A DNA stretch of 64,000 bases from Candidatus Latescibacterota bacterium (GCA_965237675.1 OZ250150.1:1632001-1696000); one strand, 5' to 3'; shown: positions 2,788-51,413, numbered from the stretch's first letter. Numbers and translations: made by a program. The notes: generated from the sequence alone by a model not told the origin.

Positions 2788-2961
2788 GGCGACCTGCGCA
2801 AGGTCGGCGAGCGATGGCACTTCGACAAGCTTGCTTCGACAGGCTCAGCACAGGCAGCGCAAGCAACGCAGCGAGACGGGATGAGTCGGCGCCTGCCTGT
2901 GCGTGCTGCCTCACGCACGCAGACAGGGATGAATGGTGACATATTTCTGGGACGGGACACT
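2788..2961 (+). mobile_element. MITE copy (left end lost) carrying nested palindromic insertions
   Basis: Aligns with 31424-31590 from GCGACCTGCGCAAGGTCGGCGAG to TATTTCTGGGACGGGACACTA, with two extra hairpin inserts. Confidence 0.75.
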
Positions 2962-3020
2962 ATACCTCGCCTGCAGAGCAACTTTATCAACGGACTGCTA
3001 AACGGCGAATCGAGGTCGGA

Positions 3021-3464: not shown

Positions 3465-3528
3465 GATAAATGATCTCACCCGGCCTGACAAGCCGATTCA
3501 CCCTTGGGGAACTCAAAAAGGGACCGCC

Positions 3529-4857
3529 ATGGCGACAGACCATCGCAGCGTACTCTTGTTGATTGCGGACGACTGGAGCCCGATTGCCGGATGTTACGGG
3601 AATTCGGCGATCCGGACGCCTAACGTGGACGCACTGGCGTCTCGCGGAACGGTGTTTACCCAGGCTTTCTGTACGACGCCATCCTGTGCGGCCAGCCGGG
3701 CGTGCGTGTTGACGGGACATTACAGCCATACCCACGGGCAGTACGGGCATACGCATTCGATCCACAATTTTCACACGCATCTGTCCATGCCCTCCATCCC
3801 CCGGACCCTCGGATCGGCGGGGTTCGCTACCGGGATTGTGGGCAAGCTGCACGTGCAGCCCAGAGAGGTATACCCGTGGACCTATGACGGGGAACGGGTG
3901 CGCGGCGGAACGCGGAATGTGGCGGAGATGGCCAGGCTGGCCGGGGCGTTCCTTTCTCAAACGGGCGACCGGCCCTTCTATCTGCATATGGGTTTCGGCG
4001 ATCCGCATCGGGATTTCGGAAATCGGGGGACCTATCCGGAGGTGGCGGAGGTGTATTATTCGCCGGAAGAGGTCGTCGTGCCTGATTTCCTGCCCGACCA
4101 TCCCGCGGTACGGCGGGAACTCGCGGAGTATTACCAGTCGATATCCAGGCTGGATCAGGGTATCGGGATGGCAGTAGATGCGCTGGAGGCCGCCGGCCGG
4201 TCGGAGGATACGCTGATTGTCGTGATGAGCGATCATGGGATGCCGTTTCCCGGTGCGAAGGGGTCGTCGTTTGACTCCGGGCATCGCTGTCCATTAATCC
4301 TGGTGCGGCCGGATGCGGCGTCCGTTCGGTGTGATGCGCTTGTGAATTGGTGTAATATCGCACCGACGGTTCTGGAGTGGTGCGGGGTGGAACCACCGGA
4401 AGGGCTTCCGGAACGCTCCCTCATCCCCATCCTGGATGAGGCGCATCCGGAAGGATGGGAAGAGACCTTCTTTTCGCATTCGTTTCACGAGGTGACGAAC
4501 TACTATCCGTATCGTGTGTTGAGGGGGCGAAATTACAAATACGTGCGCAATCTCTATCCCGAGCTGACAACGCCGATACCGGGCGACCTGTGGGCGTCTC
4601 CAACGTGGCAAGCGATTCTGGCGGAGGGGATCGGGATGATGGGGCAACGGCCCACGGAACGGTTCCTGCATCAGGATGGAGAAGCATTGTTCGACGTTGG
4701 TGCCGATCCGGCTGAGTCGACCAATGTCATCCACGACCCGGACGTCGCGGACGTCGCAGAGGCGATGCGGCGGAAGGTAAAGTCGTTCCGGGTCGGGACA
4801 CGGGATCCGTGGGTCCTCGCGTCGATTCACGCCGGAGAGGAAGGCCTCGAGGCATGA
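3529..4857 (+). CDS. Sulfatase (heparan N-sulfatase/SGSH-like)
   Basis: LLLIADD, PSCAASRACVLTG, GKLH, DPH, SDHG. Start taken at ATG 3529. Confidence 0.9.
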   Translation: MATDHRSVLLLIADDWSPIAGCYGNSAIRTPNVDALASRGTVFTQAFCTTPSCAASRACVLTGHYSHTHGQYGHTHSIHNFHTHLSMPSIPRTLGSAGFATGIVGKLHVQPREVYPWTYDGERVRGGTRNVAEMARLAGAFLSQTGDRPFYLHMGFGDPHRDFGNRGTYPEVAEVYYSPEEVVVPDFLPDHPAVRRELAEYYQSISRLDQGIGMAVDALEAAGRSEDTLIVVMSDHGMPFPGAKGSSFDSGHRCPLILVRPDAASVRCDALVNWCNIAPTVLEWCGVEPPEGLPERSLIPILDEAHPEGWEETFFSHSFHEVTNYYPYRVLRGRNYKYVRNLYPELTTPIPGDLWASPTWQAILAEGIGMMGQRPTERFLHQDGEALFDVGADPAESTNVIHDPDVADVAEAMRRKVKSFRVGTRDPWVLASIHAGEEGLEA

Positions 4858-4878
4858 GGACGCGACATTGGGCCTGCA

Positions 4879-5046
4879 CCCTGAGCCGCTCCCTGAGCTT
4901 GTCGAAGGGTAGCGAAACGCGGGCATTTCGACAAGCTCGTTTCGACGGGCTCAACGCACGCAATGACCACGCATCGGCGAGCCGTTTCGACAGGCTCAGC
5001 ACAGGCAACGCAAGCAGCGCAGGCAGCGACCGCAACGCAGCGAAAC
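4879..5046. repeat. Cluster of nested CCCTGAGC..GTCGAAGGG palindromic micro-elements plus a MITE remnant
   Basis: CCCTGAGCCGCTCCCTGAGCTTGTCGAAGGG, TTCGACAAGCTCGTTTCGACGGGCTCAAC, TTCGACAGGCTCAGCACAGG...GCAACGCAGCGAAACG. Confidence 0.75.
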
Positions 5047-5093
5047 GAATACTACCGCGACGCTCCCGCTGTATCTTTCTTTAGAGGTGTTTC

Positions 5094-5732
5094 TTGATCT
5101 TCAAGTCGATTGTGGTCGGTCCGTTGCAGGTGAACTGTTTCATCCTGGCCTGCGAAAAAACCCTCGAGGGCATCATCGTCGATCCGGGCGACAACATCCC
5201 GGACGTTCTTGAACTGGTCCTGGAAGACAACATCCGCGTTGTGGAAATCATCGCCACACATGGGCATTACGACCACATCGCGCATGCTTCCTCCGCCGTC
5301 CGCGAAACAGGCGCCCCCTTTGCCATTCATCCCGCCGATCGCTTTGATGTGGAAAACCTGGTTGAAATCGCCGCATCGATCGGTATGGACGCGGATCCAC
5401 CGCCACGCATCGATCGTTTCCTCGAAGCGGGCGATGTCGTCAAGATGGGTGAAGAATCGCTTGAGGTTGTACACACGCCGGGCCACGCCCGCGGCAACAT
5501 CACCCTCAAATGGCCGGGGCATGCGATTGTGGGGGACACCCTGTTTGCCGGCTCGATCGGCCGCACCGACCTGCCGGGCGGCGACCTGGCCCTTCTGCTC
5601 AAGTCAATACGGGAGAAGATTCTGATACTGGACGATGAGACCAGAGTCTATCCCGGACATGGTCCCTTCACCACCGTGGCCCGCGAGAAAATGAGCAATC
5701 CCTTTCTCGTGGGACGTTCCGGCGTGTGGTAG
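5094..5732 (+). CDS. MBL-fold metallo-hydrolase (glyoxalase II/YcbL-like)
   Basis: VGPLQVNCFI, IVDPG, THGHYDHI, HTPGH, GDTLFAGSIGRTD, PGHG. Confidence 0.92.
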   Translation: MIFKSIVVGPLQVNCFILACEKTLEGIIVDPGDNIPDVLELVLEDNIRVVEIIATHGHYDHIAHASSAVRETGAPFAIHPADRFDVENLVEIAASIGMDADPPPRIDRFLEAGDVVKMGEESLEVVHTPGHARGNITLKWPGHAIVGDTLFAGSIGRTDLPGGDLALLLKSIREKILILDDETRVYPGHGPFTTVAREKMSNPFLVGRSGVW

Positions 5733-5840
5733 GTCCGGAAGCTCCGCGACCTCACCGGTCCGTACGCCCCTTCGAGGCCGGCTGGACCGTTATGTGAACA
5801 ACCCGGAAGGGCAGTTGCTTCCGGAGGACTCCGAAGACGA

Positions 5841-5904
5841 GGCAACGCAGCGAGACGGGATGAATCGGCGGATGAATGGTAACATATTTCTGGGACGGGA
5901 CACC
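5841..5904 (+). mobile_element. MITE right-half remnant (empty allele) directly upstream of the pepA RBS
   Basis: GGCAACGCAGCGAGACGGGATGAATCGGCGGATGAATGGTAACATATTTCTGGGACGGGACAC, near-identical to 31526-31588. Confidence 0.8.
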
Positions 5905-5916
5905 AAGGGAGGTTTT

Positions 5917-7416
5917 GTGAACATTTCGGTTGCGATCGAAAATATTCTGGAACGGGATGCGGAAGCAATTGTGCTGAATCTCTTCGAGGGGGTCACCGAA
6001 CCGGGCGGCGCCACGGGCGCCGCGGACGCGGCCCTGAACGGCCAGATCCGAAACCTGATCTCCGACGGCGACTTCACCGGCAAATTCAAACAGATTGCCG
6101 TCCTTTATCCGCAGGATGGAATTTCCGCAAAGCGTCTGCTCCTCGTGGGCCTGGGTAAACGCGAGGAATTCACGCTCGACAGGGTCAGGCAGGCCTCCGC
6201 CGTTGCAGCCCAGCGAGCACGCAGCCTAGGGGCAGCCAACCTGGCCACCGTGATTCACGGAGGCGGGGCAGGCGGCATGGACGTAGCCGAGGCCGCGCAG
6301 GCCGTTGTCGAAGGCGCCATCCTCGGTACTTACCGCTTCACGCGGTATAAGAGCGGGGAAGACGACGACGCCAAAGAACTCGAACAGCTTGCACTGGTCG
6401 AATTCGAGGCAGGTAAGCGGACCGACGTTGAAAAAGGGTCGGATGCGGGGCGAATTATCGCCGAAGCGACTTGTCTCGCCCGGGATCTCGGCAGTCATCC
6501 CGGGAACGAGATGACGCCCGCCATACTCGCCGAACGTGCGGAAACGATGGCCCGCGAGACCGGTCTGAGATGCGAGGTCTTCGACGAAAACCGGATTGCA
6601 AAGGAAGGCATGCGAACCATTCAGGCCGTGGCGCAGGGCAGCGCACAACCCCCCAGGTTCATTATCCTCGAACACGAGGGCGGCCGGCCGGCGGCGGCGC
6701 CCGTCGTGCTCATCGGCAAAGGGATCACTTTCGACTCCGGCGGTATTTCCATTAAAGGCTCCGAGGGCATGTGGGATATGAAATTCGACATGGGGGGGGC
6801 CGCAGCCGTCATCGGCGCCATGCAGGCCGTGGCGCGGCTGGACCTGCCGGTACGAACGGTCGGCCTGGTGGCCGCCTCGGAAAACATGCCTGGCAGCCGC
6901 GCGCTCAAGCCGGGCGACATTATCCGGTCCCTTATCGGAAAAACCATCGAAATCCGGTCCACAGACGCCGAGGGCCGGCTGGTTCTGGCCGACGCCGTGG
7001 CCTATGCCGCCCGTTACAAACCCTCTGCCGCCATCGATCTGGCCACGCTTACCGGCGCCTGCATCATTGCCCTTGGACACGAGGCCAGCGGCCTCTTCTC
7101 CAACGATGACCCATTGTCATCTGAAATTGCGGCCGCCGGAGAAAGAACGGGCGAAATCGCGTGGCGCCTCCCCATTCTGGACGGCCACCGCGAGGAGATG
7201 AAGAGCGATGTTGCCGATCTGAAGAACACCGGCGGCCGCCCCGGCGGCGCCATCACGGGTGCGGCGTTCATCGAAGCCTTCGTAGGGGATTTTCCCTGGG
7301 CCCACCTGGACATTGCCGGCACCGCCTGGGCGCACAGAGACCTGCCGCACATCCCCAAGGGCGGCACGGGCGTGGGGGTGCGTCTCCTGGTCGATCTGCT
7401 CCGAAACCGGGGTTGA
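5917..7416 (+). CDS. pepA: Leucyl aminopeptidase (M17)
   Basis: GKGITFDSGG, MKFDMGG, TDAEGRL, DLATLTG, WAHLDIAGT. GTG 5917 follows a GGGAGG RBS; the longer ORF start runs through the MITE. Confidence 0.95.
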   Translation: MNISVAIENILERDAEAIVLNLFEGVTEPGGATGAADAALNGQIRNLISDGDFTGKFKQIAVLYPQDGISAKRLLLVGLGKREEFTLDRVRQASAVAAQRARSLGAANLATVIHGGGAGGMDVAEAAQAVVEGAILGTYRFTRYKSGEDDDAKELEQLALVEFEAGKRTDVEKGSDAGRIIAEATCLARDLGSHPGNEMTPAILAERAETMARETGLRCEVFDENRIAKEGMRTIQAVAQGSAQPPRFIILEHEGGRPAAAPVVLIGKGITFDSGGISIKGSEGMWDMKFDMGGAAAVIGAMQAVARLDLPVRTVGLVAASENMPGSRALKPGDIIRSLIGKTIEIRSTDAEGRLVLADAVAYAARYKPSAAIDLATLTGACIIALGHEASGLFSNDDPLSSEIAAAGERTGEIAWRLPILDGHREEMKSDVADLKNTGGRPGGAITGAAFIEAFVGDFPWAHLDIAGTAWAHRDLPHIPKGGTGVGVRLLVDLLRNRG

Positions 7417-7501
7417 TTCCGTCGAAACAGGACTTGGATGACGCACACATCCCCGTGGCAGCGTGTCTGAATATCCAGGTACTATTGGAGCGTAAAACGA
7501 G

Positions 7502-7536
7502 AAGCGCCGGCACCCTGAAGAGGGTTTCCGGCGCTT
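7502..7536. terminator. Hairpin between convergent pepA and beta-barrel genes
   Basis: AAGCGCCGG-CACCCT-GAAG-AGGGT-TT-CCGGCGCTT. Confidence 0.55.
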
Positions 7537-7573
7537 TCGAATTCCCGATGTTCACCCGCGGTTTGTCCGGTCC

Positions 7574-8077
7574 TCAACCTCCGCCCAGATTGAAGCGTAC
7601 GCCTGCCTGTACTCCAATCTCATTTGCCGCCGTGTGATCTTCAAACGATCGAAACCAGCGTACCTGCATAAACACCCCCGCGTGGGTTCCCACGTCAAAC
7701 GAAAGACCGCCCGCCACTGTGATCATCCCGTCGGTACCCGTTGCAAGGCCCGGGCTGGGTTCACCCCGAATCAGCAACGCGCCTCCGCCGGCGCCGAAAT
7801 ATATCGTGCCGCCGTATTCCGAAAGGGGCGGTTTGTATAGCAGCGAGATGCCTATTGGGATAATCCTTGTGCCCGAATTGCTGTACAGCTCGCAGAAAGG
7901 CGCGAGGTGGGTGGGATACTCATCACTCAGCGACATCTCGAACGAAAAGTGACCGCCCGGCCTGCCCGGGTCGAACAGCGTTCCCCCGCCCGCATTCACC
8001 GCGAAGTCTCTGGCGGCGACGGGCGTGGCCGCCAGCAAGGCGAAGCCCGAAAGCAAAGCCAATATTCGAACCCTCAT
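7574..8077 (-). CDS. Small outer-membrane beta-barrel protein (paralog 3)
   Basis: Signal peptide MRVRILALL...PVAA, YFGAGGG, terminal amphipathic strand QAGVRFNL. GGAGG RBS before ATG 8077. Confidence 0.75.
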   Translation of the reverse strand: MRVRILALLSGFALLAATPVAARDFAVNAGGGTLFDPGRPGGHFSFEMSLSDEYPTHLAPFCELYSNSGTRIIPIGISLLYKPPLSEYGGTIYFGAGGGALLIRGEPSPGLATGTDGMITVAGGLSFDVGTHAGVFMQVRWFRSFEDHTAANEIGVQAGVRFNLGGG

Positions 8078-8243
8078 TATACCTCCAATACATGCGGCCC
8101 GTGGGAGCCGCGAGAAATAAGTCTTGCCGTTTCCAACGGAAACATCTTTGGGGCGGACCGCTGCAAATGACGGTCGCCTTTTGACGCCAGGCGGCGCGCC
8201 GTCAACCACGCATCAATCGAATTTTCAAGCGCGACGGGTTTGC

Positions 8244-8846
8244 CTAATATTCTTCAGATACGGATTTGCCGATATTGATGGACAAACCAACCTGGAATGC
8301 GAAACTCTTCACGGCCAGTTCAGGCGCCACCTCCTCGCCATTGGAGAGCGGGTATTTTTCGGGTTCTCCACTGTACATGCCAATCCACTTGACCTGCAGG
8401 AAAACCGATGCCCTCTCGGTCGTGGCAAATTCCATTCCAATCAGCACATCGACCATGGCCTGTGTTCTTGAAGCTTCGACCGTCTCTACGGATAAATCGG
8501 TGGTTTCGCCAATGTCAACATCAAATTCCTGCGTGTCCTTCACGCTGCCGACCCCGCCGCCGCCCCCGACGTAGAATAGGCCTTTTTCACCCACGGGACG
8601 TTTCACAATTAAATTCAACCCACCCCCCAGCACCTTGCTGCCGGATTTGGAGAAGTAGTCGAGAAATGGCGAAAACGCGACCAACCCCTCCGAGGCATTA
8701 ATGTCGTACGCGAGTCCGATACCGGGCGTATCTTCGTCAAGGTGTATACCGGCGCCCAGCTTGAGCGTATGCTGCGCCCACGTGGTAGAAGTGGTGAGCA
8801 TTGCAGTAAAGCAAACGACAAAGAGAACGCGGATAAACGCCTGCAT
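8244..8846 (-). CDS. Small outer-membrane beta-barrel protein (paralog 2)
   Basis: Signal peptide, FSPFLDYFSKSG, FYVGGGGG, FLQVKW, FQVGLSIN. Confidence 0.75.
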   Translation of the reverse strand: MQAFIRVLFVVCFTAMLTTSTTWAQHTLKLGAGIHLDEDTPGIGLAYDINASEGLVAFSPFLDYFSKSGSKVLGGGLNLIVKRPVGEKGLFYVGGGGGVGSVKDTQEFDVDIGETTDLSVETVEASRTQAMVDVLIGMEFATTERASVFLQVKWIGMYSGEPEKYPLSNGEEVAPELAVKSFAFQVGLSINIGKSVSEEY

Positions 8847-9108
8847 TCAAGCCTCCCTGGATTTGCTGCGGTTTTGATCGTTGGATCGATTGGATATATG
8901 TACGGTTCGACACCAACAATAATCGCTAAAACACCAGCAGAAATCAACCCAAAAACCGCCGAAGAAGATCAAGGGGCCATTCGTACGAATCCGTCCCCCG
9001 TCTTCGGTCGCCGAAACCGGAACACCATTGCCGGACATGATCGACCGTTTTGGCCACGGAAAGGGGGACCCGCACTCGCGGTGGCCCGCCACCCGTCGGA
9101 GATCGCTA

Positions 9109-9690
9109 TCAGCGCCAGAAACCGACCGTGATGCCGGCTTGCGCCGCGAAATCTCTGAGTTCCAGGTCGATCGCGTCCGGAATCGTAACGGTCCTTCCTT
9201 CAACCTGACCCGAAATGTCCACCCGGCCTCCGCCAAAGGTTCCCAGCCACTTCACCTGCAGGAAACCTCCAAGGTTTTCGTTCAAGCTGAATTCCATTCC
9301 CATTACGAAATCTGCCATCGCCTGTGTTTTCGACGCCGAGTCGGTGATGCCGGCCGAGCTTTCTTCCACATTCACGGAGGCGACGCCTCCGCCCACGCCA
9401 ATATAGAGTTGAGACTGCTCGCCTCCGGCACGTTTGACGACGAGATTGAGCCCGCCGCCGAAAAAGCGGAAGCCGGATTTGCCGAAGTAATCCACAAATG
9501 GCGATAGAGCCAGTCCCTCATCGCCCAGGTCAACAGAAACGCCTCCCCCCGGTACATAGTTGTTGAAGAACATCCCGCCACCGGCCTTGAAAGACCCGGC
9601 CAACGCGGGAGAGCAAACAAAGAGAACCGTCATTGCAGTAAAAAAGGCGTAAGATAACGAAATCGTATGCCGGGTTGTTCGACGTCTCAT
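9109..9690 (-). CDS. Small outer-membrane beta-barrel protein (paralog 1)
   Basis: Signal peptide, LSPFVDYFGKSG, LYIGVGGG, FLQVKW, QAGITVGF. Confidence 0.75.
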   Translation of the reverse strand: MRRRTTRHTISLSYAFFTAMTVLFVCSPALAGSFKAGGGMFFNNYVPGGGVSVDLGDEGLALSPFVDYFGKSGFRFFGGGLNLVVKRAGGEQSQLYIGVGGGVASVNVEESSAGITDSASKTQAMADFVMGMEFSLNENLGGFLQVKWLGTFGGGRVDISGQVEGRTVTIPDAIDLELRDFAAQAGITVGFWR

Positions 9691-24337: not shown

Positions 24338-24871
24338 TCAGGTTGATCTGCGCTTTAATGCTAACTCTTCCTGCGAGGGAGTTCTATTAAATATTAACTG
24401 CATCCAAATTCTCGCCGGCAAGTAGTCTTCCAACTGATCAGGCTGCAAAAGACCAAAAGCTTCATTTCTTGTAGGCTCCAAAACAAAAGATCGTAGAAGA
24501 GATTCTACTCCATTAGGATCATCGGATTTGCTTTCTGCTCCCACATCGCACCGTAGCCATTTATGTAGCCAATACATCAGACCATCCCAATTACTACAGT
24601 CAAAAGTTCGAGTTTTCTGATCAGCAGGTTGACATCTAAAATCATCCCGAATATTGGACGCACTTTCAATGCGTATCAAACGTCGTTGTTCGTCAACTGC
24701 GATGACAAACGACCTCTCCAATACCAGGTTGAGTCTTGATGCCTCGCATATCTGATGTCTTTCTACTACTACATGAAAATGCGACTGTAACTCGGTGCAA
24801 TCGGACTTGGCACGACTCTGAATCTGGTCGAAGGTGTAAAAACTGGTTTTTAATTGGATAGAAGGGGACAT
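24338..24871 (-). CDS. Hypothetical protein, third gene of the AT-rich ATPase/TOPRIM operon
   Basis: 177-aa ORF 28 bp downstream of the TOPRIM gene, same composition, no recognisable motif. Confidence 0.6.
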   Translation of the reverse strand: MSPSIQLKTSFYTFDQIQSRAKSDCTELQSHFHVVVERHQICEASRLNLVLERSFVIAVDEQRRLIRIESASNIRDDFRCQPADQKTRTFDCSNWDGLMYWLHKWLRCDVGAESKSDDPNGVESLLRSFVLEPTRNEAFGLLQPDQLEDYLPARIWMQLIFNRTPSQEELALKRRST

Positions 24872-24899
24872 TTTGGAAATCGCAATACAATCGTCACAT

Positions 24900-25787
24900 T
24901 CAGATGTCTTTACCTGCTTGCCTCACTCGGTCACTAAGACGAGTGAACAGTTCGTACTCCTGCAGCTCTTCGACGGTCAGCGTGAGCACTAACGAGTGTC
25001 GAAGGGTCTCATAGCTCATCTGCTTTTTGGTAACGCCACGCTGACCAAGAAACCAAGCCAGATGCTTAATTGCATCTCGTCCGTTCGACGAATGTCGTAC
25101 ATCCTGGGGCATCTCAGACAAAAAGACTGACACTCGCTCCTTCAAATCCACATATCTATCACTAACCTGCCCTTTGTTGGCCACACGCCAAACGTATTCG
25201 TCCAAGTCTAGAACAGCGGAATCACCGTCAAGATGTACACAGCGCACATTGTCTAGGAGTGAGACCTCAAGAGATAACTGTTCCAAGCTCGCCCTTAGTC
25301 CGAACAGAGATCGCAGAACTTGAGAAAGTGCCTCGATGACCTGGCGACCTGAAAGGTCATCGCAACCCCAGGTTAAAGTGAGGCACTTTGCAATCGCTGA
25401 CTCGTTAAAGAAGTACATGTCCATACAGGTAAAATCGGTGTAAAGTAGACATGAAATCTCCAATGGAGCTCTACCAAATACACGATCGAGATCTCGATCC
25501 ACGATACATGTTACTGAGCACAGTTTGTCTTCGAGCGATGTAGCCAAGATCTGAGCGAGACGTACCACACGTCCTCTATTACCACCGGAAATTTCTCGTG
25601 CCTCTTCGCCCAGATCTACGGCATCGATCGGATAGACATTGACGCCCTTTAAACCAGTCTCTTGCACGAAATACATCACGATGCCCTGATCCGTTGTGCC
25701 CTCTACAAATACGTTATGGATGGACGGCTCATGTTCGTGCAGAAAAATGAGTTCTTGGACTTGTCTTCTTGGGATCATATTCGCCAT
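24900..25787 (-). CDS. TOPRIM/DUF4435-like nuclease (AriB-like)
   Basis: VFVEGTTD, CIVDRDLD, YTDFTCMDMY; abuts the ATPase stop codon. Confidence 0.75.
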   Translation of the reverse strand: MANMIPRRQVQELIFLHEHEPSIHNVFVEGTTDQGIVMYFVQETGLKGVNVYPIDAVDLGEEAREISGGNRGRVVRLAQILATSLEDKLCSVTCIVDRDLDRVFGRAPLEISCLLYTDFTCMDMYFFNESAIAKCLTLTWGCDDLSGRQVIEALSQVLRSLFGLRASLEQLSLEVSLLDNVRCVHLDGDSAVLDLDEYVWRVANKGQVSDRYVDLKERVSVFLSEMPQDVRHSSNGRDAIKHLAWFLGQRGVTKKQMSYETLRHSLVLTLTVEELQEYELFTRLSDRVRQAGKDI

Positions 25788-27101
25788 CTAGTCGTCGATG
25801 TCCCTAAGTGGAACTACATACTCTCTGTATTGGGATAGAATCTCTATTGAATGAGTCGCCAGTATTAGTTGTGCTTTAACTCCCTTGAGGCACTCCATCA
25901 TGGCACCGACAAGAAGCCGTTGCCACTTGACGTTCAGCGAGAGTTCTGGCTCGTCAACAATGAACACAGTGTTATCTCGACGGGCTTGTATTGCGTTACA
26001 GAACAGCAGGAGTAACTGTTTCTCACCTGACGATAACACGCTCGGGTCGAGGTCTAGCCCGGCAGACGACTTAATCGTGAGCCCTCTGCCAACGTGAATT
26101 GAGACAGACTTTTGAGAGTAGAACTCTCCAAGTAGTGTGACAAAGGTGTCCATGACTTTCTGTAGGTCTTGTAACGCATTAAGGCGCGCCTGATGTCCAT
26201 CGAGATAAGGGGTAAGAACCGAACTCAGGAGAGCAGACTGATTGTCCGCCGCTTCGTCAAGCAGGTCAGAGATTGCGCCTGCATCAAGTTCTGGAACTAG
26301 ACCAAATCTCGCGAATGTCTCATTCCGAGTCCCCAATCCAATAAGGCGTTCATTTAGATCCTGAAGAGACTCGCTGGCGTCCGTCTGTGCGTTTCCCCCA
26401 AACTTTACTAACTGACGAACGATGTCACGGTAGATCGTGTACACAGATGAATATCCAATGTTCGACTGCGATAGTGCTTGTTGCCCAAACGTTTGAATTG
26501 TGTTTCCAATGGTCTGTTCTAATAGAGCCTCGGGGGAGCTGGGGTCGTCCTCATCGCTGTCATTCAACCGTACTCTCCTTCCTGACGAATCTCTAATAAT
26601 CCTGTGTCTTCGTCCCTGTGTGGTTTCGTCATCAACGCGACGATTGTCTGGGAGAAAGTGGAGGCCGATCTTTAGCCCAGCTAGGGCTTCGCAAGCTTGG
26701 CGGTATGCTGGCTCATCGTCTTCGCCCGGTTTGTTTTCTTTCCACTCCCATTTGGTAATCGGTGTTCCGTCTGGATCGCTGATGGTGAGCTCATAGGGAC
26801 CAGGAGCGCTGTCACCTGTACGCTCGACCACGACACGGGTGCCGTCGGTAGCCCAAACTCGGAATCCTTGGAACGGAACCTCGGCAATGTTTGTCTTGTG
26901 TCCTTCAAAGATCCGAGGAGAAAGGAGATGGTACAACAACCTCAGGATTGTCGATTTCCCAGTGCCGTTGTCCCCATACAAAAGCAGTAGCTGGCCGGAC
27001 TCTGGGTCTGATGTCTTCGGTACCATAATATTGTAAGACAAGCTACCAAAGAGACGGGTGATTTCGATTCTCTGAATTAACCTTTGCGTTTTGGATTCCA
27101 T
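25788..27101 (-). CDS. ABC/AAA_15-21 family ATPase (AriA-like)
   Basis: Walker A GDNGTGKST, signature LSSGEKQ, Walker B IVDEPELSLNVKWQ, H-loop ATHS, long helical insert. Confidence 0.88.
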   Translation of the reverse strand: MESKTQRLIQRIEITRLFGSLSYNIMVPKTSDPESGQLLLLYGDNGTGKSTILRLLYHLLSPRIFEGHKTNIAEVPFQGFRVWATDGTRVVVERTGDSAPGPYELTISDPDGTPITKWEWKENKPGEDDEPAYRQACEALAGLKIGLHFLPDNRRVDDETTQGRRHRIIRDSSGRRVRLNDSDEDDPSSPEALLEQTIGNTIQTFGQQALSQSNIGYSSVYTIYRDIVRQLVKFGGNAQTDASESLQDLNERLIGLGTRNETFARFGLVPELDAGAISDLLDEAADNQSALLSSVLTPYLDGHQARLNALQDLQKVMDTFVTLLGEFYSQKSVSIHVGRGLTIKSSAGLDLDPSVLSSGEKQLLLLFCNAIQARRDNTVFIVDEPELSLNVKWQRLLVGAMMECLKGVKAQLILATHSIEILSQYREYVVPLRDIDD

Positions 27102-27220
27102 ACCAATAGCCCTTCACTGAATTACGACGCTGCCCAAAATACCGGTCTATAGCCAAGAACCAAAAGAGGGAAATACGGTTATTTCTGCGAGTTATGCTTC
27201 CATTTCATGCATTTGGAATA

Positions 27221-27351
27221 CTACGTAACAAATGCCGGGATGTGGGTCGATGCTGAACATCTCCGAACTTCCGAGATAATTCTAGCCGGGAGGCTTGTAC
27301 TCCGAATATATCGAAGGATGCCATCCAACGGTCGCATCGTTTGTTATGTAG
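27221..27351 (-). other. attC-like site
   Basis: Minus strand CTACATAACAAA ... TTTGTTACGTAG (11/12 complementary), 131 bp. Confidence 0.55.
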
Positions 27352-27475
27352 ACCGTTCTCCTGTATACCAGTCAATTCATCCGGCGGGCTCCGCATATTT
27401 GTATTAACCCGATACGTGACCTCGCAGGCGGTGACCGGGGTGTTACAGGAACGGGTTTAAAGTTAACCCTGTATT

Positions 27476-27703
27476 TCAATCGCTGCTCTTCCAAGCGTCC
27501 ACCGACCCTTCTTCCGCGTTCATAAATGACCGAAGCGCATCATTTACGGCTTCCTCGGTTGGAAATGCCTTCGCGACGTCAGGTTGTAGCAAAACCAGGT
27601 TGGTCCCTGATCGGAAAGATTCCAGATACTTTCCACGGACGCCGGGACCGAGATCTTCACGGCGATATTCGGGACGAAGCTCTTCCGGATCAGCCTTCTT
27701 CAT
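27476..27703 (-). CDS. BrnA-like antitoxin (orphan)
   Basis: ELRPEY....GVRGKY....GTNLVLLQPDVAKAFPTEEAVNDALR. Confidence 0.8.
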   Translation of the reverse strand: MKKADPEELRPEYRREDLGPGVRGKYLESFRSGTNLVLLQPDVAKAFPTEEAVNDALRSFMNAEEGSVDAWKSSD

Positions 27704-27877
27704 AGATTCTCCTCCTCGACCGATATAATGCATTAAACTCGGAGGGAATGTTGTCTCACTAATATAGGCACAGAGGGGTGGACTCCGATTAATTGAGTTA
27801 TCCTGCTACGTTACTGCGAAGCGGTAACCTTGGTGTAGTGGGCCGTGGAACGCATTGGATCTGGCCCAACTGAACAG

Positions 27878-28111
27878 TCAGGGGATCGCAGGCGAAACAT
27901 CTCTGACATGTAGAATCTCACCCGCCATTGGAGGACGCACGGCGGAATCTTCCAGGGTCAGAACCGCGATAGTGGTACCGCGGGTATCCACGAACTCTAC
28001 TTCCGACGCTCCCTCATCGTCGTATCTATGCACGATCGTACCGACGTCGCCCACCACTAGACCGTGTTCTACTATTGACTCCTTGAGAACTACCAGATCC
28101 AATTCAGTCAT
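27878..28111 (-). CDS. DUF4926 protein
   Basis: ELDLVVL....EHGLVVGDVGTIVHRY....EVEF...G.TIAVLTL. Confidence 0.85.
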   Translation of the reverse strand: MTELDLVVLKESIVEHGLVVGDVGTIVHRYDDEGASEVEFVDTRGTTIAVLTLEDSAVRPPMAGEILHVRDVSPAIP

Positions 28112-28139: not shown

Positions 28140-31100
28140 CTACGCAACAACCGCGGCGGCTTTTTCCTTCAGCGCCGGCAGCAACGCTCCGGCCTCCCGC
28201 TCAAGCCTGGCCAGCGCCTTGTCCACGTCTTCAAGATCCCCTTCGTGCGCCATGTTTTCCAGCCGCAGCGCCGCCTCGACGGTCGGATCCGCATGGAAAA
28301 TAGCCGCCGACCCCTTCAGTGTATGGGCCGCGCGTCGCAGCAGGGAGCAATCGCCATGCCCGATAGCCCGTTTCATTTCTTCAAGGTGCTTCGCGTACTC
28401 CGTAACAAACAGGCCGGCCAGTTCACCCAGCATCGCCTCGTTGCCGCCCACCTGGTCCAGGGCCCCCTGCCAATCCAGTGCGCCGCCATCCACGCCAGGC
28501 TCCGACTGCGATGCACTGTCCGATGAGACGTTATTCTCCACAACATCGTAGAGTTGTCCCGCCCTGATCGGCTTGGGGAGATAGTCGTCCATCCCCTGTT
28601 CCAGGCACCGCTCACGGTCTCCCTGCATCACGTGGGCCGTCATCGCCGCAATTCGAATATGTCCCCCCGTCGTCTTCTCCCGTTCCCTGATCATCCGCGT
28701 TGCCTCCAGCCCGTCCATCTCCGGCATCTGAACGTCCATCAGGACCAGATCGAATGCCCCGTTATCCACCGCCGCGAGCGCCTCTCTGCCGTTGTTGACG
28801 AGCGTAACGTGATGGCCGCGCTGCTCGAGTAAGTCCACAATGACTTTCTGGTTCACCATCCCGTCCTCCGCCAACAGGACGCGGCGCCTATCGGCGGGCG
28901 GCAACGGTTCCATTATCTTTGCGATATCTACGGGCTCGATAACGCTCACTTTGAGGGCCGCCAGCGTCGCATCGAGCAGGTCGGACTGCTTGACCGGTTT
29001 TGTCAGACAGCGCGCAAGCCCCAGCGCATCGCACCGGACAACGTCCTGCGTCCTTCCCGCGGACGACAGAATCAGAATCGGTACATCTTTAACGGCGGGA
29101 TCCCGCCGGAGGCGCTCCGCCAGCGCAAACCCGTCCATATCGGGCATCATCGCATCCAACAAAAACAGGTGGAACGGAAAACCGGTCTTGCCAGCCTTTC
29201 GAACTGTATCCAGCGCCGTCGGACCCGAATCCGCGACCTCAATATTCATACCCCAGGTTCCCAGCATCTCCTCGAATATAAACCGGTTTGTACGGTTGTT
29301 GTCCACCACCAGCGCGCGGAGACCCACCAGAGACTGGAGATCGGCCGCCGACCGCTTCGCCATTTGGGGTTGCGCCTCGAAGATCGCTGTGAAATAAAAG
29401 GTACTCCCTTTGTCCAGTTCGCTCTCCAACCACATCCGTCCGCCCATCATCGCGGCCAGCTGAGATGATATAGCCAGGCCCAGTCCCGTTCCTCCAAACC
29501 GCCGGGAAGTTGAAGAATCCACCTGGCTGAAAGAGTCGAAAATCAGCCGCTGATCTTCCGGTTCGATGCCGATGCCCATGTCTCGAACAAAAAACCTCAG
29601 GCAAACCTTCTCCTCTTCCCGTGCGTCCACCTTGACGTCAACCAGCACATCGCCTTTCGCCGTGAACTTGATGGCGTTGTCCACCAGGTTGATCACGATC
29701 TGCCGCAAACGGCCCGGGTCCCCCACCAGCCTGTCCGGAACATCCGGTGAGATATGGCACGCCAACTCCAGCCCCTTTTGTGTGGCTTTCACTGCAAGGG
29801 TCTGCACGGTGTCCCCCAGCGTATCGCTGAGGTCGAAGCCGATTGCTTCCAGTTCCAGCCTGTCCACCTCAAGCTTGGAAAAATCGAGAATGTCGTTCAA
29901 GAGTGCCAGCAATGCCTCAGAAGACTCCCTGCTCAACTTGAGATACTCGCGCTGTTGAGGTGTCAACTCCGTGTTGCCCAGCAACTCCGTCATGCCCATG
30001 ATGCCATTCATCGGCGTGCGAATCTCGTGGCTCATATTGGCCAGAAACTCGCTTTTTGCGCGATTCGCCTTTTCCGCTACGTCTTTTGCTTTCTGCAACT
30101 CCGCCCGCGAGCGCTCCAGGGCGACCGTACTCTTCTTCAGCGCCTCGTTCGCTTCACGCTCGGCGGCTGCCGTTTTCTCCAGTTGCCGGTTCTTTTTCTG
30201 AAGCTGTATCTCGGCGTGCTTGCGCAGCGTGATATCCCGGACCGTACCGATCATATGCACAGACTGCCCCGCCGTGTCGCCGAATACGCGGCCTTTGTTT
30301 CCCAGCCACCGAATCGTCCCGTCCGGCCATACAACCCGGTGCTCGACTTCAAAATCCACGCGTTCCTTGGTCGTCCGCCGCACCGCACTACGGACCATCT
30401 CCCTGTCTTCCGGGTGCACGTATCCATAAAACGCTTCGCGCGTCCCTTCGAAATCTTCCGGGGCAAGGCCGAACAAAGGCGCAACCAGATCCGACCAGAC
30501 CAGTTCCCCGGTCAGCAGGTTGGAATCCCAACTTCCCATATGGGCGGCTTCCATTGCCAGCTTGAGCCGGGCTTCACTCTCTCTCAACGCTCGCTCTGAG
30601 CGCTTCCGCTCGGAATCCAGATAAGCGAGTGACCGCGAGTACCACCAAATCAGGATGTTCAGCGCTACGATCACCCCAAGGGAGAACAGAGACATTCCGG
30701 ATTCGAACCCCAATATCACTTCGCCGTGAGGCCAGAGCCAGCCCAACGCCAGCGGAATCAGGAAGGCGGGCGGCAGCAACCGGCGCGCCATAGAACCGCC
30801 GGCGGTCGAGCTGACGATGGTTGTCGTTGGTTCCAGGTCCGGACGGGACAAAAACATGCCAATGCACAACAGGCCGAATGTGAGCGTTGTGACGGCGCTC
30901 ATTTGAATATCCCATGTCACTTCCCTGGGAGAGAGCGTCAGATAAAAATGTCCAATTGCATAGCCGGACGATACGATTGAGGCGACAGACAGACACGTCA
31001 GCGCCGGCCACGCGCTTCCTTTGACTCTGAATTGCCAGAGAAACAAGGCCAGGCCGATCAGGGCGAAGTTACACGCCTCATCGCGCAACATATGCCCCGC

Positions 31101-31412
31101 ACCTTCCTCGAAACCGATAAATACGGGGCCCGCGCCAACCAGTTCCAGAAATGCGAATACCACCACGACCGCGCTGATTGCCTTCCCCAGGAACTGCCGC
31201 CTGTCGGATGACCTCCCGCTCCGCAGCAGCCACAGCGCGGTGCCGGCCAGTACGAACATCCCAGCCGTCAACAAAGACATCCATTCCGCGACGGGGGCGT
31301 TGACCAGCCATCCGAACAGAACCAGCAGGGACAACAGAACTACGGCCAGGTTCGCCGCTTGTGCGGCTATCGAGGTCAGCCGCACCAGACGAGGGTCGGC
31401 ATCAGTGTTCAT
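28140..31412 (-). CDS. Membrane hybrid sensor histidine kinase (TM-PAS-HisKA-HATPase-REC-REC-Hpt)
   Basis: [32 protein letters not shown], two receiver domains (LLDAMMP, LMDVQMP), Hpt AHTLKGS. True start 31412; the longer ORF reads through the MITE. Confidence 0.95.
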
Positions 31413-31423
31413 ATCAGACCATC

Positions 31424-31590
31424 CTATTGTTCTGTCCCAGAAATAGATTGCCGAAATTCGGCCGCCGAGTCGCCCGGCTGGCAAGGCGCCTGAGCAAGGC
31501 GCCCTGCCCAAGGTCGGCGAGCGAAGGCAACGTAGCGAGACGGGATGAATCGGCGGATGAATGGTAACATATTTCTGGGACGGGACACTA
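31424..31590 (+). mobile_element. Full-length empty MITE (~165 bp) with ~21-bp imperfect TIRs
   Basis: Left CTATTGTTCTGTCCCAGAAATA, right TATTTCTGGGACGGGACACTA; the right end overlaps the TAG stop of the gdh fusion. Confidence 0.8.
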
Positions 31591-33237
31591 TGGGAAGACG
31601 CCCCTCAGGAGTTTCGCCTGAGTCACGCGGTGGATCCCTTCAATCAGCGCCGCCGTACGTATATCCAGCCCATCCCGTTCGGACCGCTGCATCGTCCGTT
31701 GGAACGCGTGGAGCAGTATCTGCCTGAGTCGTTCGTTAATCTCCGCGAGCGTCCACATATAATTCTGCGTGTCCTGCACCCACTCGAAATAGGAAACCGT
31801 AACCCCGCCGGCGTTGCCAAGTACATCCGGCAGAATAAACACCCCTTTTTCCTCCAGAATCTCATCCGCTTCCAGGGACGTGGGCCCGTTGGCGCCCTCG
31901 GCCAGGATTCTGCACCGGATCCGTTCGGCATTGTCCGCGGTGATCTGGTTCTGTATTGCCGCGGGAACAAGGATGTCACAGGGTATTTCGAGCAATTCCG
32001 GGTTGCTCACGGCGTCGCCGCCGGCGTATCCTTCCAGACTCCGGTTTTCGTCCGCATATTGCAGCAACGAATCCACGGACAGACCATCGGGATTGTAGAT
32101 TCCGGTGGTCACATCGCTCACGCCCACCACCCTGACACCGCAGGCTTCCAGGAATCGCGCCGCATTGCTGCCCACGTTTCCGAACCCCTGGACAATGGCG
32201 GTTGCGCCGCTCAAGTCCATCCCGATATGTTTGGCCGCCTCCTCCACCAGATACACCAGCCCCCGTCCCGTCGCCTCACGGCGTCCTTCGGAGCCGCCCA
32301 GCACCACCGGCTTCCCTGTGACGACCGCAGGAACGGTATGTCCCATCTGGTGGCTGTAGGTGTCCATCATCCAGGCCATTACGTGTTCGTCGGTGCCCAT
32401 ATCCGGCGCGGGGATATCTTTTTGCGGTCCGATAACGTCGATGATCTCCGAGGTATACCGGCGCGTGAGGCGCTGCAGTTCGGGGCGTGAGAGTACGGTC
32501 GGATCGATCCGTACTCCGCCCTTGGCGCCGCCAAACGGCAGGTTCATCAGAGCGCACTTCCACGTCATCCACATGGCCAGGGCGGTTACCTCGCCCAGGT
32601 TCACGTCCTGATGATAGCGCACGCCGCCCTTGGTGGGGCCCATTGTCAACAGATGCTGAATCCGATAACCCGAGACCGTTTCCACCTGATCGTGTTCATC
32701 CCGCCGGAACGGAAAGGTGACCACGTGGGTGCGCTGAGGAAACAACAGCCGCTGCCGGATGTTGTCGTCCAGTTCCATCAGGTGGGCGGCCTTCAGAAAC
32801 TGCTGCTGCGCCAGCCGGAACATCGGCGACTCCCATTCGGCGTGCAGCGCCCGGCTGCGTTCAACGGCGTATCGGATCGACCTCACCAGCACCGTGCTGT
32901 TCAACTTCGATTTCACGAGATAATCCTGCGCGCCCGCCTGAACGGCACGAGCCGCCAGTTTTATGTCCTTCAGGCTGGACAGGATCACAACCGTCAGGTC
33001 CGGATACGCGGCGCGGACCCGGAAATAGGTGTCCAGATCCTCGCTGTCGGGCAGCACCAGGTCCAGCAGCAGCAACTCGTATCCGTCCGCCGCAAGCCGG
33101 TTCAGCCCGGCCGCGAGCGTATTCGCCGCATCCACCTCGAATACCGGACCGTGTGATTCGGAGAGCAGTTCTCGAATCAAGCGCGTGTGCAGGGGATTGT
33201 CTTCAATCAACAACGTCTTTAGGTTCGTTCCAGGCAT
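31588..33237 (-). CDS. Response-regulator receiver fused to Glu/Leu/Phe/Val dehydrogenase (REC-GDH)
   Basis: REC: LIEDN, LLLLDLVLPD, VILSS, DYLVK. GDH: GPTKGGVRY, WMTWKC, GGAKGG, DIPAPDMGT, VTGKP, ATGRG, QGFGNVG, EGANGP, SYFEWVQ. No stop between the domains. Confidence 0.93.
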   Translation of the reverse strand: MPGTNLKTLLIEDNPLHTRLIRELLSESHGPVFEVDAANTLAAGLNRLAADGYELLLLDLVLPDSEDLDTYFRVRAAYPDLTVVILSSLKDIKLAARAVQAGAQDYLVKSKLNSTVLVRSIRYAVERSRALHAEWESPMFRLAQQQFLKAAHLMELDDNIRQRLLFPQRTHVVTFPFRRDEHDQVETVSGYRIQHLLTMGPTKGGVRYHQDVNLGEVTALAMWMTWKCALMNLPFGGAKGGVRIDPTVLSRPELQRLTRRYTSEIIDVIGPQKDIPAPDMGTDEHVMAWMMDTYSHQMGHTVPAVVTGKPVVLGGSEGRREATGRGLVYLVEEAAKHIGMDLSGATAIVQGFGNVGSNAARFLEACGVRVVGVSDVTTGIYNPDGLSVDSLLQYADENRSLEGYAGGDAVSNPELLEIPCDILVPAAIQNQITADNAERIRCRILAEGANGPTSLEADEILEEKGVFILPDVLGNAGGVTVSYFEWVQDTQNYMWTLAEINERLRQILLHAFQRTMQRSERDGLDIRTAALIEGIHRVTQAKLLRGVFP

Positions 33238-39472: not shown

Positions 39473-39687
39473 GGTGTTCTGCTCCGGAAATATGTCACCA
39501 TTCTTCCGCCTGTCTGTGTGCAGGTCTTCCGCACAGGCAGGCCGGTTCATACCGTCTCCCTGCGTTGCTTGCGCTGAGCTTGTCGAAGTGCCTTCACTCG
39601 CCGACCTTGGGCAGGTCGCAGGTGCCTTGCGAGCCGGGCGACTCGTCGGCCGAATTTCGGCAATCTATTCCCGGGACAGAACAATAG
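39473..39687 (-). mobile_element. Full-length MITE with two single hairpin insertions
   Basis: Reverse complement CTATTGTTCTGTCCCGGGAATAGATTGCCG...GGCA[CTTCGACAAGCTCAGCGCAAGCA]ACGCAG...CGGC[CTGCCTGTG...CAGACAGGC]GGAAGAATGGTGACATATTTCCGGAGCAGAACAC. Confidence 0.82.
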
Positions 39688-49847: not shown

Positions 49848-51413
49848 TCAAATCCGCTCGATTATTTCCCGAAACCCATTTACGGATCGCCAGAAACCGG
49901 AACGGCCGGGCAATGGCCGGAGGCAGATGACCCCGTTGAAACTTCGACATCGGAGATTGGATAGAATCTCGACGAGTTCCGCGTTTCCGGTGCCCGGAAC
50001 CGGCTGTTGTCCATTCGCGCTCACGACGTCTCGCAGGTCGACGTGCGCCACGAATCGGCGCACTGGCCCCTTGTACAACCCCATATAAAACGGGCTTCCT
50101 CCCGAAAGCGCGACGGCCGCCGGATCGTATGCCATCTGCATCCTGGCCGACCCGATCTTACTCAACGATCTGGCGATTTCCGACGGGTCCACACCTGCGG
50201 GATTCCCCACAAGCACGTCCATCCCATTGTCATCGGCGACCCGGGAGAGCCGTTCAAGTGCACCGTTCAGGTCCGCCCGATCGAGGTCCTCAGGCAGCCG
50301 GACATGCAGGTGCTTTGCATCGAAACCGGCTGCAATTTCACAAGCTTCCGCCAGCGTCTCAGCAGATGCGAACGGCGTGCGCAATACAACAACGTTGAGG
50401 CCCCGATCCCCCAGGCCTTCACCAAGGATAGCCATATGGACCAGATGATTCGTATGCATTTCGACCCACGAAACCCCCGCCTTTGCGATCGAATCAAGCG
50501 TTTTATCGGGAGCGGCATCAACCGCCCACAGCGGCACGCTAAGCCTGAATTTCTCGTCTTCCAATATGGACGCCAGGGAGTCGGTTCGTATCAGCCGATC
50601 TTCTCCCCGAACCGCCTGACGGCTGCCGGACTGTTTCCGGATCTTCTCTCTGTATCCCACGCAGTCCGTGCAGTTCGGATTCTCGTCCAGCGCAAACCCC
50701 GGATCCCGCGACATTTCCCGACGCATGATCGCTGCGGCCCCGGGCGCGTCGATCAGCCGGCAGACGGCCGGTCCGATCCTGCCCACGTCCATGGCCCCTT
50801 CGGCTCGGAACAGGCGGTCGAACTTCAAGACGCCCCCACGGTGTCCGCCCGGACAACGGCGTATCGACAACGTACGGACCTCGCCACCCGCATCGATATA
50901 CTTCATTTCCAGTTCGCGGAGGTAGGGCAGGTCCAGTTCCGCCTCCACCGTATGCAGCAGCGTCATCGTATCCAGGTCGCATCCCAGGTGCAACACCTTT
51001 CCGCCAAGAGGAATCAGGCGGCCATACGGCGTTTCCGGTCCATCGGGCGCCGCGCTCATCTCATGATTGCACAGGATCTCCTCCGCCCTCGCTCCGCACC
51101 CCGCCACCGGATGATACGGATGCCGGCTGCGCGACACGCCCGCCCGCAACCGGAACGTCTCGCTGATGACGCCCATGTCCGAAGGGATGGCGTCCGGATC
51201 GAAGGTGCGACCATCCCGGGCCGGGTGCGTGGGCATCAACAACGTTCCATGCCTCCCGAGTACCTCCACCAGAGCGTCGATTACCGCGTTCGCGCCGCCG
51301 GATACAGGCCCCAGACTGCTCAGGGACGAATGTACCATCACAATCGTTCCCGGTTGCAGCCCCAGGTCCCCGACCCCATCGACAATATCCTGTTGGGATA
51401 GCATCGCGGCCAT
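49848..51413 (-). CDS. AAC(3)/YokD-family N-acetyltransferase fused to a xylose-isomerase-like TIM barrel
   Basis: VHSSLSSLG, LMPT, MGVISETFR, RSRHP, TLLHTVE; then CxxC; then YDPA, HVDLRD, PGTG.AEL..I, FNGVICL. Confidence 0.82.
   Translation of the reverse strand: MAAMLSQQDIVDGVGDLGLQPGTIVMVHSSLSSLGPVSGGANAVIDALVEVLGRHGTLLMPTHPARDGRTFDPDAIPSDMGVISETFRLRAGVSRSRHPYHPVAGCGARAEEILCNHEMSAAPDGPETPYGRLIPLGGKVLHLGCDLDTMTLLHTVEAELDLPYLRELEMKYIDAGGEVRTLSIRRCPGGHRGGVLKFDRLFRAEGAMDVGRIGPAVCRLIDAPGAAAIMRREMSRDPGFALDENPNCTDCVGYREKIRKQSGSRQAVRGEDRLIRTDSLASILEDEKFRLSVPLWAVDAAPDKTLDSIAKAGVSWVEMHTNHLVHMAILGEGLGDRGLNVVVLRTPFASAETLAEACEIAAGFDAKHLHVRLPEDLDRADLNGALERLSRVADDNGMDVLVGNPAGVDPSEIARSLSKIGSARMQMAYDPAAVALSGGSPFYMGLYKGPVRRFVAHVDLRDVVSANGQQPVPGTGNAELVEILSNLRCRSFNGVICLRPLPGRSGFWRSVNGFREIIERI

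Follow-up and report, generated by a model that had tools for sequence, protein, structure and literature searches.

The stretch of DNA analysed here, in the following called the window, comprises 64,000 nucleotides of the genome of a Candidatus Latescibacterota bacterium (GCA_965237675.1 OZ250150.1:1632001-1696000), and its positions 28140 to 33237 hold a two-gene cassette in which a glutamate dehydrogenase (GDH) fused to its own N-terminal receiver domain (REC) is followed by a hybrid sensor histidine kinase with a C-terminal Hpt (histidine phosphotransfer) domain. A repeat resembling a miniature inverted-repeat transposable element (MITE) lies between the two genes. The features of the cassette, counted from the first letter of the window and with (-) denoting the minus strand, are the following.

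31588..33237 (-): coding sequence of the REC-GDH fusion, 549 amino acids plus stop; open frame, translation and Pfam REC, ELFV_dehydrog_N and ELFV_dehydrog
32839..33237 (-): receiver domain, residues 1-133, with strands and helices spanning 5-133 and helix alpha5 at 114-133; Pfam and AlphaFold2 (AF2) model
33061..33063 (-): codon of Asp59, the predicted phospho-acceptor; invariant in 139/139 members and in alignment A1
32827..32838 (-): fixed-length junction, residues 134-137 (E-W-E-S), between REC helix alpha5 and the first GDH helix
31588..32832 (-): complete GDH body, residues 136-549 plus stop; end-to-end alignment to the solved structure 1b26 and Foldseek
31424..31587 (.): MITE-like interspersed repeat of 164 bp, between the GDH stop codon and the ribosome-binding site of the kinase; no strand assigned
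28140..31412 (-): hybrid sensor histidine kinase, 1090 amino acids plus stop from the first ATG; translation and Pfam
30588..31412 (-): N-terminal sensor region of the kinase with multiple transmembrane (multi-TM) segments, residues 1-275; several hydrophobic spans
30231..30569 (-): PAS domain, residues 282-394; PF08447 (PAS_3) with 76 bits, and PF00989
29388..30059 (-): HisKA and HATPase_c transmitter core, residues 452-675, with the H-box SHEIRTP; Pfam
28968..29321 (-): kinase receiver 1 (REC1), residues approximately 698-815, with the acidic pair D-N instead of D-D
28539..28880 (-): kinase receiver 2 (REC2), residues 845-958, fully canonical; Pfam
28182..28424 (-): Hpt domain, residues 997-1077, with the phospho-His in AHTLKGS; PF01627 with 51.2 bits

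The fusion gene is an open reading frame (ORF) without interruption from 33252 to 31588 on the minus strand, and its first ATG at 33237, which is also the start position of the homologues in the alignment, yields a protein of 549 residues. The N-terminal part belongs to the receiver family by Response_reg (PF00072) at residues 9-110, with 56.7 bits over a cut-off of 30.2, and is followed by ELFV_dehydrog_N (PF02812) at 167-296 with 177.5 bits and ELFV_dehydrog (PF00208) at 314-546 with 267.9 bits, all above the curated cut-offs. Present in the receiver are E12-D13, D59 in the motif LLLLDLVLPD, S87, Y106 and K109 in DYLVK, which, by analogy with CheY, we take to be the acidic pocket, the phospho-acceptor aspartate, the Thr/Ser, the aromatic switch and the lysine, respectively. 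These positions are highly conserved among the 139 members aligned (E12 in 139, D13 in 136, D59 in 139, T/S87 in 135, Y/F106 in 139 and K109 in 139). Equally, residues 136-549 match residues 3-416 of the solved GDH 1b26 unbroken over the whole chain (E 7e-139, 52% identity), and the AF2 model superimposes on the same structure in Foldseek with a TM-score of 0.92 on the target and a root mean square deviation of 2.5 A. The GDH motifs GGAKGG and GFGNVG are present, and among 60 aligned sequences K203, K227, G236-G240 with K239, D279, G351-G356, N475 and S482 are invariant or nearly so, with K239 in GGAKGG, K203, K227, D279 and G351-G356 invariant or at least 90% conserved; these positions presumably have the catalytic, substrate-lysine and dinucleotide-binding roles of their counterparts in the GDH of Clostridium symbiosum. 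With respect to substrate identity, the best NCBIfam matches, GdhB_Halo with 498 bits (cut-off 620) and GdhA_Arch with 484 bits (cut-off 750), stay below their cut-offs, and all close solved relatives of the fusion enzyme are GDHs. The enzyme part of the fusion is a complete, hexameric-type GDH, and the conservation pattern indicates that purifying selection maintains the chemistry of receiver and enzyme alike.

In the kinase, HisKA, HATPase_c, receiver and Hpt domains all score above the Pfam cut-offs, as expected of a hybrid or unorthodox kinase. The multi-TM region matched no Pfam family at E 0.01 and, in the Atlas, matched unnamed clusters at 0.94 and 0.90 and MASE3 at only 0.83, below the trust level; it shares 37-46% identity with the corresponding part of the cassette kinases at loci L001, L003, L102, L103, L105 and L107-L109. 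An alignment of 15 cassette kinases retains the H-box histidine and the REC1 aspartate in 15/15, and, with the stand-alone REC-Hpt protein of locus L101 included, E-D, D, T and K of REC2 in 16/16 and the Hpt histidine in 15/16, the exception being the Microbulbifer kinase (L008), where the Hpt domain is a separate gene. Scores against the NCBIfam equivalogs BarA, TorS, ArcB, LuxQ, RcsC and EvgS were all below the curated cut-offs, the best being BarA with 484 bits (cut-off 890) and TorS with 479 bits (cut-off 676.5).

The intergenic gap of 175 bases includes the 164-base element, which has terminal inverted repeats of 28 nt with arms 79% complementary and folds as a long hairpin (-73.4 kcal/mol, z -3.6). 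At least 26 further near-full-length copies with 76-94% identity occur genome-wide (among the 40 candidates scored of 155), and partial copies are found in the window at 5840-5902 (63 nt, 98% identity) and 39589-39687 (99 nt, 87%). At the site between the two genes the element is missing in 13/14 same-genus genomes, only G008 having it with 99% identity; as for a target-site duplication, ATAG stands on both sides of the insert at the one site examined. Short, non-coding, bounded by terminal inverted repeats, dispersed in many copies and polymorphic in its presence, the element has the hallmarks of a MITE. Without it, the GDH stop codon and the kinase ATG are separated by 11-16 nt in three aligned gaps and by at most about 55 nt in the same-genus genomes, with an AGGA-type ribosome-binding site in the spacer of the aligned gaps. 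The absence in 13/14 genomes together with the close spacing thus identifies a translationally close-coupled gene pair as the ancestral state and the MITE as a recent arrival, which has left both genes intact. Between 27700 and 33600, a scan for sigma-70 promoters gave 0 promoter-like sites and a scan for terminators 6 sites compared with a shuffled mean of 5.0, which is chance level, both scans being uninformative for this phylum.

A first-pass annotation made from the sequence had described the locus as one uninterrupted ORF joining a receiver with all canonical residues to a complete GDH, followed by a TM-PAS-HK-REC-REC-Hpt kinase with only a MITE in between and with no DNA-binding regulator nearby. 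Frame, Pfam domains and motifs confirm the first part, all domains of the kinase were recovered by Pfam and translation, and the spacer is indeed a 164-bp repeat with inverted arms and dispersed copies. A DNA-binding domain was found in none of the 52 window ORFs scanned, 23 of which matched no Pfam family.

In a word-indexed protein search, 8000 candidates were scored. All of the best 120 clusters listed combine PF00072, PF02812 and PF00208 in proteins of 539-566 residues with 68-91% identity to the query, and their source names include Gimesia, Pontibacterium, Amphritea, Latescibacteria, Gemmatimonadota and Longimicrobiaceae. As the same uninterrupted architecture is also present in 17 related genomes, the fusion is not an assembly artefact; a misassembly, frameshift or stop between the domains, which the first-pass annotation had named as fatal to its proposal, was accordingly rejected. 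The rarity implied by that annotation, on the other hand, found no support, as the family is large, spans several phyla and had been listed as a 'probable' two-component enzyme in 2009. The fusion is carried by 23/168 genomes of the phylum of the window and spreads over Planctomycetota, Gemmatimonadota, Pseudomonadota, Myxococcota and relatives. When a tree was built from the GDH parts of 22 fusions and 68 plain GDHs, leaving out 13 near-identical same-genus rows, all fusions fell into one clade (SH-aLRT, the Shimodaira-Hasegawa-like approximate likelihood ratio test, 99) with two plain GDHs nested within, which points to one origin and at least two losses. Locus L054, considered as a candidate for a split receiver and GDH, was rejected, its upstream gene being an ordinary LuxR-type regulator by Pfam.

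The partnership with the kinase extends well beyond the window. From a scan of species-representative genomes, 12 full-length fusion loci were obtained, eight of them with at least 3.5 kb on both sides, and in six of these eight a homologous HisKA-HATPase-REC-REC-Hpt kinase with 41-49% identity directly adjoins the fusion (Gemmatimonadota, Pirellulales, Halomonas, Microbulbifer and Lujinxingia); loci L009 and L010 have no adjacent kinase. The kinase stands beside the fusion in 14/14 same-genus genomes at 84-89% identity, and in genome G021 at 56%, so that identities among kinase homologues adjoining the fusion in other lineages range from 41 to 89%. Within the phylum of the window, loci L102, L103 and L105 also have the kinase and L106 has none adjacent, while genome G017 has in its place a 269-residue REC-Hpt protein 61% identical to the REC2-Hpt part of the window kinase; the contig of G018 ends 232 nt past the gene and the flank of L104 is short. 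A metagenome scan with the N-terminal 175 residues returned 80 loci, of which 28, falling into 23 clusters at 95% nucleotide identity, were kept because the fusion is full-length and flanked by 3.5 kb or more on either side, a selection that avoids feature-based counting. Adjoining the fusion on the same strand, the kinase core occurs in 20/28 and an Hpt domain in 22/28 of these, and neither in 6/28. Taken over all 84 full-length rows, the window included, the kinase is found downstream in 27 and upstream in 20, Hpt alone in four (one of these on a truncated contig), nothing in nine and flanks too short in 24, a count biased upward because a match on a short contig counts as positive whereas a miss there is not counted. 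The first-pass annotation had regarded a missing kinase linkage in the homologues as refuting its proposal, and the outcome of this test favours the proposal, an Hpt-bearing neighbour adjoining the fusion in 22/28 metagenome, 6/8 genome and 14/14 same-genus loci.

The adjacency has persisted through considerable rearrangement. On the tree, kinase and fusion have exchanged their order six times or more, and the constant core HisKA-HATPase-REC-REC-Hpt is combined with input modules that differ by lineage, namely multi-TM alone in Gemmatimonadota, multi-TM plus PAS in the window, GAF-PAS-PAS in Halomonas, CHASE in Microbulbifer and Lujinxingia, and two extra receivers in a Pirellulales genome. 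Where the Hpt domain is split from the kinase, it is kept near the fusion, as a 118-residue Hpt gene between kinase and fusion in Microbulbifer (L008), as a stand-alone Hpt gene beside the fusion in L133 and L151, and as REC-Hpt alone in G017 (L101). The proposed role of the GDH receiver as terminal acceptor of a phosphorelay is thus well supported at the level of conserved adjacency and conserved phospho-residues. In the Pirellulales locus L004, positions 1570-9644 hold, in this order, CheA-like (Hpt-HATPase-CheW-REC) and CheB-like genes, the kinase with two extra N-terminal receivers and the fusion, and a chemotaxis-type pathway may feed a GDH-ending relay there. The kinase likewise lies upstream in the metagenome loci L117-L121, L127-L129, L134 and L137, which belong to the same clade as L004.

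A related arrangement occurs in another genus of the phylum, where 29/31 genomes (L107 6911-10158, L108 7035-10321, L109) encode a 123-amino-acid single-domain receiver that is about 52% identical to the fusion REC and sits 3 nt upstream of a homologous multi-TM HisKA-HATPase-REC-REC-Hpt kinase, with no GDH nearby. The receiver and kinase lineages are therefore partners even without GDH, and it is to this partner of the kinase that the enzyme is joined in the fusion family. Whether the stand-alone receiver is ancestral or arose by GDH loss was addressed with a receiver-domain tree, which gave an unresolved polytomy and no direction. Receivers 41-46% identical to the fusion REC and linked to other C-terminal parts occur in L110-L113 (genomes G015, G067, G105 and G061) in frames of 284-798 residues, with clusters of two or three such receivers in G061 and G105, and group with the fusion receivers in the same tree. 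The kinase-less loci L009, L010 and L104 adjoin cyclopropane-fatty-acid-synthase-like methyltransferases, L010 also a DUF1295 protein. These genes were rejected as a general alternative partner, being absent from the kinase-less metagenome loci (0/28). The receivers of L009 and L010 have diverged to 33-35% identity, yet the phospho-residues are kept.

The junction between receiver and enzyme offers hints as to how the two are coupled. The AF2 model shows a break of four residues between the helices 114-133 and 138-154; K109 and Q146 lie 38 residues apart in 139/139 members, and zero insertions or deletions occur within residues 100-200 of any member. E134 is invariant in the alignments A1 and A2; the same holds in A2 for W135 and S137, while W135 shows near-invariance in A1. 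Position 148, in the first GDH helix, is Leu in the fusion clade and Asp, Glu or Asn in 53/66 plain GDHs, and R179, V188, A347 and R518 are four further positions specific to the fusion clade. As a tether would tolerate changes in length and the junction does not, mechanical or allosteric transmission from the alpha4-beta5-alpha5 face of the receiver to GDH domain I is favoured. A complex prediction of the receiver (1-133) with the GDH body (136-549) returned a score of 0.00, which is no answer and counts neither for nor against docking.

With respect to the physiological setting, the genome to which the window belongs (computed as 99.9% complete with 8% contamination) encodes exactly one ELFV GDH, the fusion, besides a glutamate synthase (GOGAT) of 1547 residues and several glutamine synthetases (GS); no large Bac_GDH was found in it. 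Equally, the fusion is the only GDH-length match listed in 14/14 same-genus genomes. GS-GOGAT can therefore assimilate ammonium, and the fusion is the sole route of glutamate/2-oxoglutarate dehydrogenation. Peptidase genes (M20, M17, M3 and S15) are numerous in the window, and arginase or ornithine cyclodeaminase genes lie beside the fusion in some kinase-less loci, which hints weakly at a catabolic role of the fusion GDH.

Integrating these observations, a dedicated four-step His-Asp-His-Asp relay can be proposed, in which the membrane/PAS sensor kinase would autophosphorylate on the H-box histidine, the phosphoryl group would pass to an internal receiver, most likely REC2, and then to the Hpt histidine near the C-terminus, and Asp59 of the GDH-fused receiver would be the last acceptor. 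The rigid junction, whose length does not vary, would then transmit the ensuing change in the alpha4-beta5-alpha5 face of the receiver to the first helix of the subunit-contact domain of the GDH, and the organism's only GDH would be altered in its catalytic activity or in the behaviour of its hexamer. The sensed signal might thereby set the glutamate/2-oxoglutarate/ammonium node without transcription. Comparative genomics supports the wiring of relay to enzyme well, and this part of the proposal appears quite probable, while the full statement that the relay ends on Asp59 and modulates the GDH allosterically is held with somewhat better than even confidence; phosphotransfer, its effect on catalysis and the direction of this effect are what we infer. 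That phosphorylation activates the GDH can be guessed, with little confidence, by analogy with CheB and PleD. Sensors of membrane, PAS, GAF and CHASE type occur in the cassettes, as does a chemotaxis-like CheA/CheB pathway, and there is an even chance that the cassette represents a horizontally mobile two-gene module by which almost any sensor switches the GDH of a cell by phosphorylation through a rigid fixed-length junction.

Several observations weigh against this proposal. The two plain GDHs nested in the fusion clade lack a receiver by Pfam, so that the receiver can be lost. As the same kinase also occurs with a bare receiver, a fused enzyme is not required for the receiver to act, and other explanations thereby gain room. 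In one clade of 15 rows, six have adequate flanks and no kinase and nine have flanks that are too short, and three other loci are without adjacent kinase or Hpt domain; the linkage is therefore not universal, and the receiver evidently can be served from elsewhere. Furthermore, the D-N pair in REC1 is confined, among the 15 aligned kinases, to the window kinase and a same-genus relative; it may impair the binding of metal, in which case REC2 would remain as the functional receiver of the relay. The hairpin-forming repeat of 164 bp now present between the genes may uncouple their expression. Finally, the AF2 model, with a mean pLDDT (predicted local distance difference test) of 77, in which the receiver reaches 83-92, the NAD domain is confident and GDH domain I stays at 44-66, is only moderately confident and gives no reliable picture of how the REC is seated on the enzyme.

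The alternative that survives best, in itself unlikely, accepts phosphorylation by the relay as real and assigns to it the control of protein interaction, localisation or stability instead of catalysis. The model for this would be the trigger enzymes, Bacillus RocG/GudB among them, to which regulators and partner enzymes bind. Judged by their PDB titles, the closest solved relatives do form regulatory complexes (the Thermus hetero-hexamer 3aoe, GudB-glutamate synthase 7mfm and the DnaK-GudB model 9a5j), and the bare receiver that is served by the homologous kinase must act through protein contacts. However, the invariant length and conserved residues of the junction fit mechanical coupling better than a tethered interaction module, and no conserved candidate partner is found beside the cassette except the kinase. 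Slightly less likely still is a flow of information in the reverse direction, in which the GDH body would sense glutamate, 2-oxoglutarate or NAD(P)H and the fusion would constitute a metabolite-gated phosphate sink tuning the output of the kinase to an unlinked regulator. Transfer between Hpt and receiver domains is reversible, as known from phosphorelays in general, and single-domain receivers often act as sinks. A single-domain receiver indeed occupies the same position in the related cassette, and with no DNA-binding regulator nearby any transcriptional output must be encoded elsewhere. The GDH part is nevertheless as conserved as a functional enzyme, and the genome has no other GDH, whereas a mere sensor would tolerate the loss of catalytic residues in some lineages, which is seen in none of the 60 aligned sequences; moreover, the kinase-less clade keeps the receiver residues. 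Improbable is, at last, that the neighbouring kinase is not the donor and that the receiver is served by another kinase or acetyl phosphate or is a structural relic, with mere co-transfer behind the adjacency, for although 9/60 rows with callable neighbourhood have neither kinase nor Hpt neighbour and the genome encodes many other kinases and receivers, the phospho-residues are under strong constraint, and co-transfer alone does not explain an adjacency that, in several phyla, has outlasted reversals of the gene order, exchanges of the sensor module and the splitting of the Hpt domain from the kinase.

Some further features of the window are independent of the cassette. Directly downstream of the kinase, at 24338-28100, the G+C content drops from about 0.60 to 0.46-0.50; this region holds an AAA_21 ATPase (25788-27101), with AriA (E 4e-23) and PtuA (2e-16) of PARIS/Septu type as the best PADLOC matches, and three ORFs without family, and is probably a small acquired defence island. 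No tRNA gene was found in the window. A 2258-residue ORF at 56882-63658 combines 13 or more fibronectin type III repeats with a dockerin domain at the C-terminus and probably encodes a giant surface protein. At 49848-51413, a 521-residue ORF matches aminoglycoside 3-N-acetyltransferase in its N-terminal 232 residues (PF02522, E 3.5e-51), its C-terminal half matching no family.

The textbook role of two-component systems is the switching of genes, motility and second messengers, and, to our knowledge, the control of bacterial GDH is known to occur via transcription, small-molecule effectors, partner subunits or partner proteins. If true, the relay proposed here would add a fast, signal-driven layer of control at the meeting point of carbon and nitrogen metabolism, most important where the fusion is the only GDH, as it is here. 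No two-component relay would have been shown before to terminate directly on an enzyme of central carbon and nitrogen metabolism, and the fusion would also offer a natural design for phospho-switchable dehydrogenases. As the family is large, with about 70% identity across phyla, and present in the culturable Halomonas, Gimesia, Pontibacterium and Lujinxingia, the hypothesis is testable by ordinary biochemistry, and the fixed-length junction is attractive for learning how a receiver passes its state into a large oligomeric enzyme.

In comparison with solved enzymes, the fusion GDH shares two-domain fold and motifs with the GDHs of Thermotoga maritima (1b26), Thermus thermophilus GdhA/GdhB (3aoe, 3aog) and Bacillus RocG/GudB (3k92, 3k8z, 7mfm). 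Unlike the fusion, these solved chains carry no receiver, and residues 1-130 are covered by none of 41 sequence matches or the best 50 of at least 500 structural matches among solved structures. The known regulation of these relatives is exerted by a partner subunit, small molecules or partner proteins and not by a fused receiver. The domain combination as such has been recorded by automated census in P2CS, where 'EC 1.4.1.3 glutamate dehydrogenase: probable' appears in Table 1 of 2009 among the enzymes in two-component proteins, as a list entry that, in this table and the text around it, comes without analysis of a kinase partner, phylogeny or experiment (PMC2716373). A full-text literature search, with subscription journals mostly outside its range, found no experimental or analytical study of a receiver-GDH fusion. 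The architecture is thus catalogued and uncharacterised, and the comparative support for its wiring appears unusually strong.

With the BarA/TorS/ArcB type, the window kinase has in common the order HisKA-HATPase-REC-Hpt and all phospho-sites, and it differs by two receivers, an unnamed multi-TM sensor and a putative target that is an enzyme and not a DNA-binding regulator. The closest parallels to the fusion itself are CheB (REC-methylesterase) and PleD/WspR (REC-GGDEF). As in these systems, a canonical N-terminal receiver is fused to an enzyme, the gene of the cognate kinase is adjacent, and post-translational control by phosphorylation would be expected. Unlike in CheB and PleD/WspR, however, the output of REC-GDH is not a signalling enzyme but an oxidoreductase of central metabolism that is normally a free-standing hexamer, and the receiver is joined to it not by a flexible linker but by a short junction of fixed length.

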